From a virus (taxonomy: Duplodnaviria; Caudoviricetes), in IMG/VR virus record IMGVR_UViG_3300044699_000031, positions 1-47,200 of that record: a DNA stretch of 47,200 nt; one strand, 5' to 3'. The translations under genes were made by a program, and so were the position numbers. Below the pieces are notes generated by a model that did not search any database, had not been told where the DNA came from, and saw only the letters and a list, made by a program, of their open reading frames with translations. Shown here in pieces: positions 13,893-33,100 of this stretch. The stretch's first letter is position 1; each line of letters opens with the position of its first letter.

Positions 13893-13987
13893 AGCCGTTC
13901 ATCTACGTCTGTCAGTGCGGCCACGGTAGTCGCACCGCCAGAGAGGCGCTGATTCACCAACACGAGAAGCACGGGGCCAAGTCGTGA
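13889..13987 (+). CDS. Tiny Cys/His peptide (32 aa)
   Basis: YVCQCG...ALIHQHEKH; GAGGAGG RBS; GTGA overlaps at both ends. Confidence 0.45.
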   Translation: MKPFIYVCQCGHGSRTAREALIHQHEKHGAKS

Positions 13988-14475
13988 AGATCGTCACCGC
14001 GTTCACCCTGGCGCTGCTGCTGCCGGCACTGGCGAGCGCGCAACCGCAGCCCGTGAACAAGTGGGCGGACTGGAGTAGCTACGGCACGGCCGGCGTCAAC
14101 GTCACGATCGGCGCGATCGACGCCTGGAATAGCGAGCGCCGAGGCTGCCACCTGGCGCAGCTCCTGGTCAGCGAAGGCGTCGGCAACGGCACGGCGCTGA
14201 CGGTCAAGCACTACGTCCGATCGCCGCGCCCATGCCTGGGCTGTCCGCCTGACGGCATGCCGAGCGCGCACACCATGAACGGCATCATCGGCATCAACCA
14301 AACGCACCCGGCCAGGAGCTGGAAGGGTCGTGTGCTGGTCGGCGTCACGATGGCCACGCTGACCGGGGTTCTGCGCTGGCAGGCGAACCGTCACACCTGG
14401 GAACAGATCGGATATGGCGCGTTGCTCGGCGTCGGCGCTGAGCTGAGCGGCCAGATTATCCGCTGCGACGATTGA
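13984..14475 (+). CDS. PAP2-superfamily membrane phosphatase with signal peptide
   Basis: Motifs KHYVRSPRP, MPSAH and LRWQANRH...I; Sec-type signal ending ASA|Q. Confidence 0.75.
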   Translation: MKIVTAFTLALLLPALASAQPQPVNKWADWSSYGTAGVNVTIGAIDAWNSERRGCHLAQLLVSEGVGNGTALTVKHYVRSPRPCLGCPPDGMPSAHTMNGIIGINQTHPARSWKGRVLVGVTMATLTGVLRWQANRHTWEQIGYGALLGVGAELSGQIIRCDD

Positions 14476-16509: not shown

Positions 16510-16683
16510 ATGGACCCCCTCACCATCATTCTGATCGTCGTCCTGGTGCTCATCCTGGCTGGCTGGCAAGGCGTTTACACCGCCCCCGGCTACGTCACCC
16601 CTGGCGCTGTCCTGGTCGTGCTCCTGGTCATCGTCCTGGTGCTGTTCCTGACCGGCCACGGGTTCCGCCGCCTGGGCTGCTAG
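16510..16683 (+). CDS. Small two-TM membrane protein (DUF3309-like)
   Basis: MDPLTIILIVVLVLILAGW...GAVLVVLLVIVLVLFLTG; TACAAT at 16496-16501. Confidence 0.6.
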   Translation: MDPLTIILIVVLVLILAGWQGVYTAPGYVTPGAVLVVLLVIVLVLFLTGHGFRRLGC

Positions 16684-22922: not shown

Positions 22923-23310
22923 ATGCCGCTGTTGCCGATCGTCCGGAATGCTGCCGACCCGAAGCAGGTCAAACGTGCCGAGCGCACGGAGGCCCGCCGG
23001 TTCGCCAGGTTCGCCAGCGCGCTGAAGGCCGTCATGGCGACGCCGGAAGGCCGCTACGTGCTGCGCACGATCATCGACGATGCCGGCATGCTGCGCAGCA
23101 GCTTCGATACGAACGGCTCGATGATGTATTTCAAGGAGGGACGCCGCAGCTTTCGGACTAGAGATACGCGCCGCGTGCGTGGAAGTGGACGAGGAGCTAG
23201 TGCTCCTGATGGACACGGAAGGCACCGCGCAGCGTCGCGCCGACGAGTCGGAAATCAAGGCCGGCCACATCAGTGACCAGGCCGCAGCAGAGGGAGACGG
23301 CAATGGTTGA
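22923..23310 (+). CDS. Bbp19-like protein
   Basis: LKAVMATPEGRYVL...SF.......FKEGRRSFGL; lies between portal and scaffold. Confidence 0.7.
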
Positions 23311-23978
23311 TCAACCCGCAGCCGGCGCAGCGTCAAGCGAAGCCGGTAAAGGTGGAGCAGCAGCAGAGCACGAAGACGGCCGACACGAAGACGGCCGACG
23401 AAAAGAAACCGGCAGCCGGCGCCGCTGCAGCAGCGACCGGCGAAAAGAAGGAAGGCGCGGACGGAGAGCAGCCAAAAACCGGCGGCAAGGACGACAAGGC
23501 GGCAGCCGAGTCGAAGGCCCCCGAGAAGTATGAGCTGGCGATTCCGGACGGCGCCGAGCAGTGGCTCGACGACGCGGACCTGAAGAACTTCGAGAAGACG
23601 GCCCGAGCCAAGGGCCTGACGAACGAACAGGCGCAGGCACACATCGACGAGTATGCCGATTCACTGGCCACGCAGAGCGCAGCGTTTCGAGAGGAAACAA
23701 GCAAGCACCCGAAATACGGCGGCGACAACCTGGCCGAGACTCAGCGCCTGGCCACGTTAGCGCTCGACCGTGTCCGGCCGGCCAACACGGCAGAGGGCAA
23801 GGCGATCCGCCAGCTCCTGGCGCGCACCGGCTACGGCAACAACGTGCACATCGTCGGCCTGTTGGCCGACCTGGGCAAAATGATGGCAGAGGACTCGCCC
23901 GCCCACGGGACCGGCGCCGGCCAGCTCAAAGACAAGAGCCCCGAGGCTGTGCTCTACGGCGGCAGCGCGAAGACCTGA
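23303..23978 (+). CDS. Capsid scaffolding protein
   Basis: Low-complexity N-terminus, APEKYEL, AKGLTNEQAQ, YGGDNL, TGYGNN, GKMMAED, VLYG; immediately upstream of MCP. Confidence 0.8.
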
Positions 23979-23995
23979 CCATCGGAGAAACTCAC

Positions 23996-25133
23996 ATGCG
24001 CAGCTTTCTAGTGTTGATGGTCCTGTTGGCCGTCGCCATGCTCAGCGTAGACCTGGGCGCGGCGACAACGGTCGCAGGACACACGACGGCGATTCCGCTG
24101 GCGTGGAAGATCGGGCTGTTCGTCGCGTTCGGCGCGGCGCTTGGCACCGGCAACCTGACCCTACTCGACTGGGCGAAACGCCTGGACCCTGACGGCAAGG
24201 TCCCGACGATCGTCGAGCTTCTCAATCAGACGAACGAAGTGCTGGACGATATGCAGTGGAGGGAGGGCAACCTACCCACCGGCCACCGCACGACCGTCCG
24301 CACCGGCCTGCCGACCGTCGCCTGGAGGTTGCTGAACCAGGGCGTCGTGCCGAGCAAGTCGACGACCGCGCAGATCGACGAACAGGTCGGCATGCTCGAA
24401 GCCTGGTCGGAAGTCGACAAGGACCTGGCGCTGCCTCAACGGCAACGTCGGCGCGTTCCGCCTGTCCGAGGCGCGAGCGTTCCTCGAAGCCATGAACCAG
24501 GAGTTCGTGCAGACCCTGTTCTACGGCAACGGCGGCCTGGCGCCCGAGGAGTTCACCGGGCTCAGCGTCCGCTACGCGACGACCGCCGGTTCGCCGGCCA
24601 ACGCCGACAACATCATCAAGGCCGGCGGTGCCGGTTCCGACAACACGTCGATCTGGCTGGTGTCATGGGGCGAGGAAACGATCACCGGGATCTTCCCGTC
24701 CGGCAGCAAGGCCGGCCTGCAGCACGACGACTACGGCGAAGTCACCGTCGAAACGGTCGCCGGCCTGCCTGGTGCCCGTATGCGCGCGTTTCAGGAGCGC
24801 TGGCAGTGGAAGGCCGGCATTGCGCTGAAAGACTGGCGCTATGTCGTCCGGATCGCCAACGTCGACATCAGCGACCTGAACGCGGCGAACGTCAAGACGA
24901 TCATCGATAACATGGAGAGCGCGATCGAACGGATTCCCAACGCCCTGGGCCGTCCCGTGTTCTACATGAACCGCACCATCCGCCGGTTCCTGCGTCGTGA
25001 GGCGCGCGAGTCGGTCGGCAGCGGCGGCGGGCTCAGCTTCGAGAACTTCGCCGGCAAGCGGATCTTGATGTTCGGCGAGGTTCCGATCCGGACGGTGGAT
25101 CAGCTTCTGAACACGGAGGCCCTGGTTCCGTAG
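23996..25133 (+). CDS. Major capsid protein (BPP-1 Bbp17/epsilon15 gp7 type) with hydrophobic N-terminal extension
   Basis: TLLDWAKRLDPDGK...ELLNQTNEVLDD...EGNLPTGHRTTVRTGLP...TLFYGN...DWRYVVRIAN...PIRTVDQLLNTE; one indel near 24433; GGAGA RBS. Confidence 0.93.
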
Positions 25134-25174: not shown

Positions 25175-25617
25175 ATGTATCTCGACAACCTACTCGTGGT
25201 CAGCGACGCGCAGGCATTCACAGGCGCCGCCGTCTCGACCAACTCAATCGACTCTCGGAACGTCACGCCCAAGCGAGAAATCGCAACCGGCGAACCGATG
25301 GGATTCGGCATCGCGGTCGACGTCGCTGCGTCGTCGACGACCGTGCTGGTCGAAATCATTCAGGCGACTGACGCGGCGCTCACCGCCGGCATCATCGTCC
25401 TGGCTCAGCGGACGTTCCTGTCGGCCGACATGCCGGCGGGCGCGCTGATCTTCTTCCCCATCCCGCAGAACCCGACGGCAGCCGGACCCCTGCGGTTCCT
25501 GGGCATCCGCGTCACCCCGGCGGGCGGCGCGGCGACCGTGACGCTGACGTCGTGGCTGACACGCACGACGCATTCAGCGTGCTGGCGAAGCCCTACGCCA
25601 AATCCTACGTGGTCTGA
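25175..25617 (+). CDS. Capsid cement/decoration protein (Bbp16-like)
   Basis: MYLDNLLVVSDAQA...STNSID...IATGEPM...LRFLGIR; AGGAG RBS; directly after MCP. Confidence 0.8.
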
Positions 25618-25714
25618 TTCAGACCTGGGCAAGACGAAGAAACCGAAAGATCCGAAGCCACCAAAATAGCCGGCGGTCAACGGGCCGCCGGCACTCGTTC
25701 AGTAGGAGAGAACC

Positions 25715-30339: not shown

Positions 30340-32565
30340 ATGGGTGAAGCCGTTTTCCAACGTGCCTTTGCCGGCGGCGAGCTGGCGCCGTCGCTGGCCG
30401 CCCGCGCCGACCAGGCGAAGTATCTGACCGGCCTGCGGACCTGCCGCAACTTCATCGTGCAGCGTCATGGCGGCGTCACCAACCGCGCCGGCACCCGGTT
30501 CGTCTTTCGGCAGCAAGCTCGACTCGACGGCGACGTTTCTGCTGCGCTACGTGTCTGCCGTCGACGGCGAGAGCGTGCTGATTGAGGCCGGCCCGAATTA
30601 CCTGCGCTTCTACAAGAACGGCGCGATCGTCCGGCTGACCGGCGTCGCTGCGTGGAACGCCGGCACGACCTACGCGGTCGGCGACATCGTCGTGAGCGGC
30701 GGCGTCAACTACTACGCGGTCGCCGCCGGCATCAACCACATCCCGCCCAACGCAGCGTTCTGGTATGCGATGCCGACCGACATCTTGGAGATTCCGACGC
30801 CGTTCGGGAACGCCGGATTCAACTGGTCGCAGTCGGGCAGCATCATCACGCTGACGTCGCTGCTGGTGCCACCGCACGAGCTAATTTACTTCTCGCTGAC
30901 GCACTGGGTGATCCAGCAGGTCAACACGGCGCCGGCCGTCAACCCGCCGACGGGACTGGCCGCCGTCGCAGGCGTCGCCGGAGCGCGCGACTATAAATAC
31001 GTCATCACGTCGGCGGCAGCGGACAGCTACGAGGAATCGATCGCGTCTAGCATCGTGCAGGTGTTCTGCGGCGAACCGACGAAGGACAACCCGAATCAAT
31101 TGAGCTGGACGCCACCAACCGGCGGCGCGGTCGCCGAGTATTACATCTATCTCGACCCATACGAGAACGGCACGTTCGGCTTTGTCGGCACAGCCACCGG
31201 CCAGACCACGTTCAAGGACGTCGGGTTCACGCCTGACTTTGCGGTCACGCCCCGCTGCCGCGCATCTTGTTCAACACGACGGACAACTACCCGGCGCGCT
31301 CGACCAACTATCAGCAGCGCCGGTTCTTCGCCAACACGAACAATGAGCCGGACGCCGTGTTCGGATCGCGCGTCGGGTTCCGCAGCAAACTTCAACATCA
31401 GCAGCCCGCTGCAGGACGACGACGCGCTGACGTTCAAGATAGCCGGCGACCAACACAACCCCGTGCGTCATCTCCTGGGCCTGAAGGCGCTCGAAGTGCT
31501 GACTGACGGCGGCGTGTGGACGGTCGGCCAGGCCAAGACCGCACTGACGCCGTCGAACATCCCGGCCGACCAGGAAACCTACAACGGCGTCGGCGGCGTC
31601 AAGCCGGTAGTCGTCGGCAACTCGATCCTGTATCAGCAGGCGCGCGGCGCGATCGTGCGCGACGTCCGGTTCGAGCAAGAGGTCGAAGGACTCGCCGGCC
31701 GCGACCTGACGCTGTTCGCTGCGCACCTGTTCGACGGTCGCACGCTGACGGCACTCGACTATCAGCAGACCCCGCACTCGATCGTGTGGGCCTGTCGATC
31801 GACGGCGCCCTGCTCGGCCTGACCTACCTGCGCGAACAAGAAGTCTGGGCTGGCACCGTCACGACTCTGGCGCTGGCGCGCTGTTCGAGGACGGTGTGTC
31901 GTGCCGGAAACCGACGAGGACGTCGTCTATCTCCTGGTCCGGCGGACGATCGGCGGCGTGTTCAAGCGCTACATCGAGCGTCTGGAGCGTCGCGAGATTC
32001 TGTCGTTCAACGCCGACTGTTTCTTCGTCGACGCCGGCCTGACCTACACAGGCGTGCCGGCGACGTCCGTCTCAGGGCTCGACCACTTGAACGGCCAGCT
32101 TGTCGCCGTCGTCGCTGACGGCCAGGTGATTTTCAACGGCGACGCATCGACCGCGACCGCCGCCCAGGTCACGGAGTTCACCGTCGCCGCCGGCACAATC
32201 CCGCACGTCTTTAACCCGGCGGCGAGTATCATTCACGTCGGGCTTGGTTACTTCGCCGACATCGAGACGTTGGATCTGGACGTGCAGGGCGTCGCCATCC
32301 GCGACAAGGCGAAACGAGTCGGCACCGTCCAAGTGCTGCTGAACGAGAGCTGTCGCACCTGGTGGGCTGGTCCGTCGACGACGCGCCTGGTGCAGGTCAA
32401 GCTGGAAGAAGCGGAGAGCGGCCTGGAGGAATCACCGTTCACCGGCCAGGAGAACATCAAGATCGAAAGCGACTGGAACGACTACGGGCGCGTCGTCATT
32501 CGCCAGAAGGACCCGCTGCCCTCGAAATTCTCGGCGTGCTGCCGATCGTAGAAGTAGGAGGATGA
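30340..32565 (+). CDS. Tail nozzle / tail tubular protein B
   Basis: FAGGELAPSL..RAD..KY..GL..CRNF.V..HGG..NR.GT.FV; YQQRRFFA; RDLTLFAAHLF; YQQTPHSIVW; YIERL; FFVDAG; SGLDHLNG. Confidence 0.9.
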
Positions 32566-32566
32566 G

Positions 32567-33100
32567 ATGCGACGACTGTTGATCGGTTCGATTCTGGCCC
32601 TAGTGCTCGGCACGCAGGCCACGCACGCGCAGCCGGATTTCTTTGTGATGCAGCCGTCACAAGTGTCTGGCATCACCGCCACCACGCTGACGCGGAACAC
32701 GTTCCGCCTGCCGCCTGGCGTCGAGCAGCTCGACATCCTGCTGAACATCACAGCCGGCGGGACCGCGACCGGCACCCTGCAGATTTATCTAGAGGACAGC
32801 GTCGACGGCGGCACGACCTGGGATGACGCGGTCAGCTCGCTGACGTTCGCCCTTGGCGCCGCCGCCGTCACGCAGCGCTTTTTTATCAGCACGGCGATCA
32901 TCCCGTCCGTTATCACGACGGCCGCCAGCACGAACATCACGCAGGGATCACCCGCGACGCAGGAAGCGCTGGCCGCCGGCAGCGCTCGCCAGGGACCGAT
33001 AGGCACGCAGTGGCGCGTGCGCGAGAAGCTGAGCGCCCCGTCGGGCTCACCCGTCGGCGCGACCTACACCATAACCGCCAGGGTGAAAGTAGGGATCTGA
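32567..33100 (+). CDS. Beta-sandwich protein with Sec-type signal peptide
   Basis: MRRLLIGSILALVLGTQATHA|Q; LLNITAGGTATGTLQIYLEDSVDGGTTWDD; intact ORF; AGGAGG RBS. Confidence 0.75.
   Translation: MRRLLIGSILALVLGTQATHAQPDFFVMQPSQVSGITATTLTRNTFRLPPGVEQLDILLNITAGGTATGTLQIYLEDSVDGGTTWDDAVSSLTFALGAAAVTQRFFISTAIIPSVITTAASTNITQGSPATQEALAAGSARQGPIGTQWRVREKLSAPSGSPVGATYTITARVKVGI

Follow-up and report, generated by a model that had tools for sequence, protein, structure and literature searches.

Capsid proteins of the HK97 fold are taken to be soluble, and in phage BPP-1 the cement protein lies on the outer surface of the shell. The inovirus procoat consists of a signal peptide, a loop and a helix and is cut by leader peptidase. 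A membrane-held coat precursor has been described for such filamentous phages, but we found none described for tailed phages. In the BPP-1 report (PMC5701804), the capsid protein is given as not truncated, and a strand of its N-arm pairs with the cement protein; the same pairing is described for Xacm4-11 (bioRxiv 10.64898/2026.02.16.706137).

The window, that is, the whole 47,200-nucleotide stretch of DNA that was analysed, is a complete 47.2-kb virus record with about 65% G+C from an uncultured soil phage, and public sequencing runs containing the region came from soil, rhizosphere and freshwater sediment. Its genes run in the order portal, scaffold, capsid, cement and tail, which is that of the BPP-1/epsilon15 podophages. 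The scaffolding protein gene (23303..23978, + strand), which has an early frameshift in this assembly and carries the PHROG 458 label "protease", precedes the capsid gene, and a cement protein gene of the Bbp16 family (25175..25669, + strand; PF21190), itself without a leader, follows it, giving a GP7-type neighborhood. The open reading frame that begins at 23996 codes for a capsid protein of the BPP-1/epsilon15 (GP7) type, which opens with a leader of 46 residues. Its mature HK97-fold body (24134..25133, + strand) belongs to PF20911 and PHROG 212 and resembles the solved structures 3j4u, 8cjz and 3j40 by sequence and by fold. The two halves of the frame scored 123.9 and 282.4 bits against PF20911 (cut-off 27), placing the protein in the GP7 family, and Foldseek matched it to 8cjz (E 6e-25) and 3j4u (E 1e-24), as befits an HK97-type fold. 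The Pfam GP7 match begins at residue 64 and the PHROG 212 match at residue 50, and the three solved relatives could be aligned only from residues 47-50. In the ESM Atlas, the whole protein fell into GP7 clusters of viral taxa only, and residues 1-62 gave no usable match.

The capsid gene has a ribosome-binding site, GGAGA (23984..23988, + strand), between the scaffold stop at 23976-23978 and the capsid ATG. A sequence-only reading of this DNA had reported an unbroken frame following this site and no in-frame start with a ribosome-binding site at the usual position. Indeed, translation gave the same frame at the same positions, and among the 12 in-frame ATG, GTG, TTG or CTG codons in 23996-24190, a Shine-Dalgarno (SD)-like motif was found at the first only, and none of the 12 is at the canonical start position. 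The window assembly is rich in indels: frameshifts also interrupt the terminase, portal, scaffold and tail genes, and the capsid frame is broken downstream because of one extra base near 24433-24435, an insertion that is missing from the contigs of runs X2, X3 and X4. An intact version of the capsid protein (P0003, 378 residues) shares 99% identity. The same reading had called for a check of reads over the leader, and we aligned contigs of four public runs (X1-X4) to the region: single contigs from X1, X2 and X3 spanned the leader, X4 covered it in two pieces, and none of the indels listed fell inside it. Neither a stop nor a separate ATG came to light, and homologues did not turn out to lack the leader. 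Among the runs listed, no RNA run contained a useful share of the region.

The leader was present in 105 and absent from 9 of the 114 script-classifiable sequences among the best 120 matches, counts that do not amount to a frequency because the query contained the leader; the remaining six lacked the script's anchor motif and were left unclassed. Five scans yielded 130 distinct loci, 53 with a leader, 75 leaderless and 2 unclear; on inspection, L234 was reassigned to the leader class, a leader was found in L236 and a frameshifted one in L184. In a second set, gathered with another query, 107 distinct loci divided into 17 with a leader, 89 without and 1 unclear. Leaderless genes had their own SD directly 5' of the Met in 68 of 74 cases, and an internal SD-backed start near the junction occurred in none of 54 leader loci. 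Across six disjoint close pairs, pN/pS was 0.29 for the leader versus 0.18 for the next 95 codons of the body, and the window leader differed from that of L085 by nine synonymous changes and one replacement. By these measures the leader is under purifying selection, and because of this selection, together with the lack of an SD-backed start near the junction, it is very likely translated. Judged from its homologues, the leader is real and conserved, among more than 100 relatives, and the earlier question of whether it is kept across a clade is answered by 140 distinct homologous leaders.

The leader was absent from all 8 GenBank records opened, which were spread over 104 matching phages, and a GTDB scan returned four loci, all leaderless. 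A profile of the leader only (44 sequences) run against 1.84 billion representatives gave one weak match and missed its own family, a search too insensitive to be informative on other families. The G+C range was 53-71% for leader loci and 36-72% for leaderless loci, which hints at host dependence.

To describe the anatomy of the leader we used the 140 homologues, which are 24-58 residues long (median 47) and mutually related, so not independent cases; peptidase sites and spans were called with simple rules of our own rather than SignalP or DeepTMHMM. Residues 1-22 (23996..24061, + strand) form a signal-peptide-like segment with a basic N-region, a hydrophobic core and a predicted signal peptidase I site after Ala22. 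The sequence-only reading had proposed such a signal peptide, and the family supports this anatomy: the N-region was basic (net positive) in 134 of 140 leaders, and a signal-peptidase-like site lay at residues 20-26 in 133 of 140, against a mean of 67 and a maximum of 80 after shuffling. The first hydrophobic core had a median 12-residue hydropathy of 3.0 over the 140 leaders. With a small residue at -1, an aliphatic one at -3 (mostly Leu/Val rather than Ala) and a position of about 20-26, the putative site has the features predicted for signal peptidase I, and at least 90% of the 99 homologues that were aligned retain Ala22. The polar, Lys/Arg-poor linker that follows (residues 23-36; 24062..24103, + strand) is predicted to lie on the periplasmic side, and of 130 homologous linkers 123 carry no net positive charge.

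The second hydrophobic segment (residues 37-57; 24104..24166, + strand) is a predicted marginal transmembrane span across the leader/mature junction. A second hydrophobic helix had been claimed for the leader; the segment exists, but only half of it belongs to the leader, and its 19-residue hydropathy reached the usual transmembrane level (at least 1.6) in only 68 of 140 leaders. Near its middle stands Gly46 (24131..24133, + strand), which the junction alignment sets opposite the initiator Met of leaderless relatives and which is the predicted final cleavage site. This Gly was present in 138 of 140 leaders, in 129 exactly at the Met position and in nine one residue earlier; two leaders were without it. 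The nine have an extra residue after the Gly (Met in five of them) with the Gly retained ahead of it, an arrangement that suits a putative cut site better than a fixed packing motif. An uncharged run of at least 19 residues extended across the Gly in 132 of 138 leaders, was centred on it and included the first 11 residues of the mature protein. Relative to the Gly, hydropathy was greatest at -5 to -2 and +1 to +3, Trp/Tyr peaked at -14 to -8, Asp stood at +12 and Lys/Arg at +15/+16. The best conserved element of the leader was the five residues ending in Gly, with a junction consensus of Val/Ala at P3, a bulky residue at P2, Gly at P1 and often Gly at P6. An AlphaFold2 model of modest confidence placed helices at residues 2-16, 20-26 and 35-48. 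Taken together, these features suggest a signal peptide followed by a loop on the outside and a marginal span, the inner half of which would be the N-arm of the mature protein.

Not every relative has this full form. At L495 (1129-1191), a minimal 21-residue leader with a good ribosome-binding site has a single segment, too short for a hairpin, and the same terminal Gly; several other leaders have only 4-6 hydrophobic residues before the Gly. Measured against an inovirus-type layout, the linker and the uncharged span fit, the hydropathy of 1.6 is attained by the 68 leaders counted above, and L495 is without the layout. One leader (L490) has a lipobox-like Cys. Three single-helix forms with putative starts (P0061, P0067 and P0104), apparently N-out, were left out of the support. 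In class III (prepilin) substrates a polar, basic leader precedes the Gly and a hydrophobic helix follows it. Here hydrophobicity peaks at residues -5 to -2, contrary to that rule, and we rejected the protein as a prepilin peptidase substrate.

Signal-like or added N-termini were also seen on other proteins of the group. Four large terminases have a short signal-like N-terminal leader that is basic and hydrophobic (L172:1307, L225:3678, L249:3621 and L208:4139), and in L172, L225 and L249 the terminase GTG start overlaps the stop of the preceding gene with GGAG upstream. No link between terminase and capsid leaders was seen: a pattern that missed L172 and L225 picked out 2 hydrophobic ones among 34 terminase N-termini, and the capsid protein of both these phages has no leader. 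At L248, a Bbp16-type cement protein with a typical-looking signal peptide is encoded about 1044 bases downstream of the capsid junction. The scaffolds of L089, L185, L195, L197, L207, L208, L226, L232, L235 and L248 have short N-terminal extensions in which basic and aromatic residues are frequent; these recall host-cut propeptides. In the window, a small two-helix membrane protein gene, which presumably resembles DUF3309, lies directly before the small terminase (about 16510-16683), and open reading frames with a signal peptide occur in the replication region (13984-14475) and among the tail genes (32567-33100; 177 residues, with relatives in five loci). A tail protein (30467-31822) has an insert like a carbohydrate-binding module, with PF02839 just below cut-off. 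Small secreted-looking genes between terminase and portal occurred in both leader and leaderless classes.

We propose, tentatively and with somewhat less than an even chance of being right, that the capsid protein is synthesized as a procoat tethered to the membrane, and that host proteases would cut it after Ala22 and, within the membrane, after Gly46, a rhomboid being the most plausible enzyme for the second cut. Acting as a signal peptide, residues 1-22 would insert into the membrane; the linker, poor in Lys/Arg, would be carried across, and residues 37-57 would halt the transfer, so that the capsid domain would stay in the cytoplasm alongside the scaffold and portal. A signal peptide was not found on the scaffold N-termini, and by the established logic of head assembly the capsid domain would therefore have to meet the scaffold in the cytoplasm. 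Signal peptidase would then remove residues 1-22, and a host intramembrane protease would cut at the mid-segment Gly; a rhomboid best fits the predicted N-out topology. The 11 uncharged residues that remain could not hold the protein and would slip out of the membrane, and the cut after Gly46 would give the same N-terminus that leaderless kin have after Met removal. Rhomboids are described as requiring a small P1 and helix-breaking residues (PMC2941825). Applying the recognition motif from the same source with the cut after the Gly, 66 of 129 junctions obeyed the P4 rule and 6 of 129 had both P4 and a large P2'; with the cut one residue later, 71 of 129 had the full motif.

The phage itself appears to bring no such enzyme. 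The rhomboid family PF01694 was found neither in the phage's own genome nor in any of 50 related records (the longest were chosen; 26 were at least 90% complete), and the site-2 protease family PF02163 was absent from its own genome and gave one match in the 50 records, below cut-off and inside a 2697-residue frame. We rejected the scaffold as a protease for its modelled last 155 residues: their predicted structure is all-helical with no protease fold and no PDB match at E<=0.001, and 66 scaffold sequences held no invariant Ser/Cys/His set. Because no phage rhomboid, site-2 protease or scaffold protease was found, any leader-processing enzyme is most likely the host's.

Nor did any other phage gene follow the leader. 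Among 96 loci (genes of at least 60 residues), no accessory family within about 8 kb was significantly linked to it, the lowest p values falling on core genes and shadow frames. Across largely complete whole records (18 with a leader versus 13 without; 102 families), no accessory gene tracked the leader in gene calls that may miss small genes; the best p value (0.001) belonged to an apparent shadow frame over the largest gene and the next (0.012) to a family commoner in leaderless phages. No multi-helix family was tied to the leader in these 18 and 13 records. A quick tree was built from 111 capsid bodies, excluding incomplete ones and all but two enterobacterial copies. On this tree the leader state changed 21 times, compared with about 37 when labels were shuffled; gain and loss are not distinguished, and at least 9 of the changes are forced by well-supported branches. 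Since the state flips at least nine times and no phage protease tracks it, the leader looks accessory.

These results bear on what the leader is for, which is the weakest step of the proposal. Repeated loss of the leader without other change would point to an optional holding or hiding stage, controlling when or where free subunits appear, and not to a new core assembly route. Possible benefits would be less contact with capsid-sensing defences or a concentration of subunits at the membrane. The sequence-only reading had gone further, to membrane-associated head assembly, which does not follow: some relatives without the leader share about 90-94% identity across the first 100 residues of the core, the leader changes state repeatedly and subunits could detach before assembly. 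In a broader form of that idea, tailed phages of several capsid families would use an HK97-fold coat as a membrane procoat and build proheads tethered to the inner membrane, to be freed by intramembrane proteolysis or to carry host lipid, with export-type leaders extending the scheme to terminase and cement; we think such an undescribed assembly route decidedly unlikely.

The junction can also be read as part of a plain export signal, with signal peptidase, or an enzyme resembling it, making both cuts on the outer face, after which the capsid domain, folding in the cytoplasm, would slide back from the translocon. We consider this aborted export unlikely. Signal peptidase follows a (-3,-1) rule and usually prefers Ala at -1. 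The junction consensus of Val/Ala, a bulky residue and Gly fits the (-3,-1) rule as well, the short leader of L495 reads as a single signal peptide ending at Gly, and in relatives large terminases and one cement protein also have signal-like starts; however, the near-invariant Gly is at odds with the preference for Ala, and, judging by the aromatic belt, the Gly lies some ten residues deep in the hydrophobic run. We know of no bacterial precedent. A viral precedent is hepatitis B precore, for which 70-80% of the peptidase-cut product is reported back in the cytoplasm (PMC2114996).

An improbable alternative is that the leader is never stably inserted and serves as a soluble, hydrophobic pro-sequence cut by a cytoplasmic host protease, as by Prp in 80alpha. 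It would agree with the strong conservation of the five residues ending in Gly and with the N-terminal additions on some scaffolds of the group, and the leader replaces Met exactly, as Prp-cut extensions are described to do (PMC9405229). It gives no account of the signal-peptide layout, of the conservation of Ala22 or of the scarcity of Lys/Arg in the linker, and the junction has Gly rather than the Phe of the Prp motif, while the window scaffold has no matching leader.

We find it quite improbable that only the signal peptide is removed and the anchor retained, with Gly46 as a helix-packing residue and shells built on the host inner membrane or incorporating it. A GxxxG/S pattern is indeed formed by Gly46 with the small residue four positions further on (Gly in 80 and Ser in 43 of 138), but Gly or Ser at the second position is also present in 42 of 55 leaderless forms, and the extra residue after the Gly in nine leaders argues against packing. 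The N-arm of BPP-1 pairs with a cement protein that is itself on the outer surface, which can be cited for this reading, yet because of the same pairing the finished shell would have difficulty accommodating a retained leader. A different virion architecture would, moreover, hardly allow close kin without the leader and without a linked gene change. True export, in which the capsid protein would be wholly or partly secreted into the periplasm to act as a decoy or to be added late, is very improbable: weak second segments in some relatives and the many signal-bearing genes among the structural genes speak for it, but there is no second start for a cytoplasmic form, the scaffold has no signal and the density of signal-bearing genes is alike in leader and leaderless classes (0.034 and 0.036 per kb). 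An assembly error or wrong start call, suggested by the many frameshifts in the window, is hardly credible given the independent contigs, the 140 distinct leaders, the purifying selection and the lack of an internal ribosome-binding site.

In full-text literature, mostly open-access and judged mainly on titles and abstract openings, we found no description of a tailed-phage capsid protein with a signal-peptide/anchor leader, and the part consulted of a review of membrane-containing phages (PMC6356626) has no mention of HK97. If the membrane-tethered precursor is real, it would link tailed-phage head assembly with membrane biogenesis of the inovirus kind, and bacterial intramembrane proteases would gain an abundant substrate. 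It would also be a way to hide a known immune trigger, the capsid, which Thoeris is described to sense (bioRxiv 10.1101/2024.07.29.605636). Natural pairs of leader-bearing and leaderless phages with near-identical cores allow a direct test of the role of the leader.

Compared with known systems, the window protein is closest to the PF20911 capsid proteins of BPP-1 (Bbp17; 3j4u), epsilon15 (gp7; 3j40) and Carin-1 (8cjz), which it resembles in family, in fold from residue 47 and in the order scaffold-capsid-cement; they start at the Met that Gly46 replaces here. The capsid and scaffold extensions of 80alpha likewise put an N-terminal extension on a tailed-phage capsid protein, cut by host Prp with no phage protease (PMC9405229), whereas the cut is only predicted here. 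Those extensions are short, soluble, L27-mimicking, common to capsid and scaffold and end in Phe, in contrast to a hydrophobic 46-residue leader that ends in Gly and is missing from the window scaffold; with P1 Gly in 138 of 140 leaders, we rejected a Prp-processed extension. Providencia TatA has an N-terminal extension missing in other homologues and cut by the rhomboid AarA (PMC3712462, PMC2941825), but it keeps its helix, stays in the membrane and has no preceding signal peptide, and the rhomboid motif is only partly present in the window family. Hepatitis B precore is also a capsid protein with a signal-bearing N-terminal extension whose cut product can end in the cytoplasm (PMC2114996); it is eukaryotic, with an unrelated fold and a core that has its own start, whereas the window gene offers the long form only. 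T4 builds its head at the inner membrane (PMC3185693), but its prohead is anchored through a connector chaperone and not through every capsid subunit, as would be the case here. Finally, inovirus (M13/fd) pVIII is likewise a coat protein whose precursor lies in the membrane and has a loop in the periplasm (PMC5766580, PMC3185693), insertion being only predicted for the window protein. In pVIII the helix itself makes up the coat protein and is kept in the virion, whereas the window protein has a 330-residue HK97-fold domain whose anchor would need removal; as its coat is not itself a short helix, we rejected it as a true inovirus-type procoat, although it may work alike.
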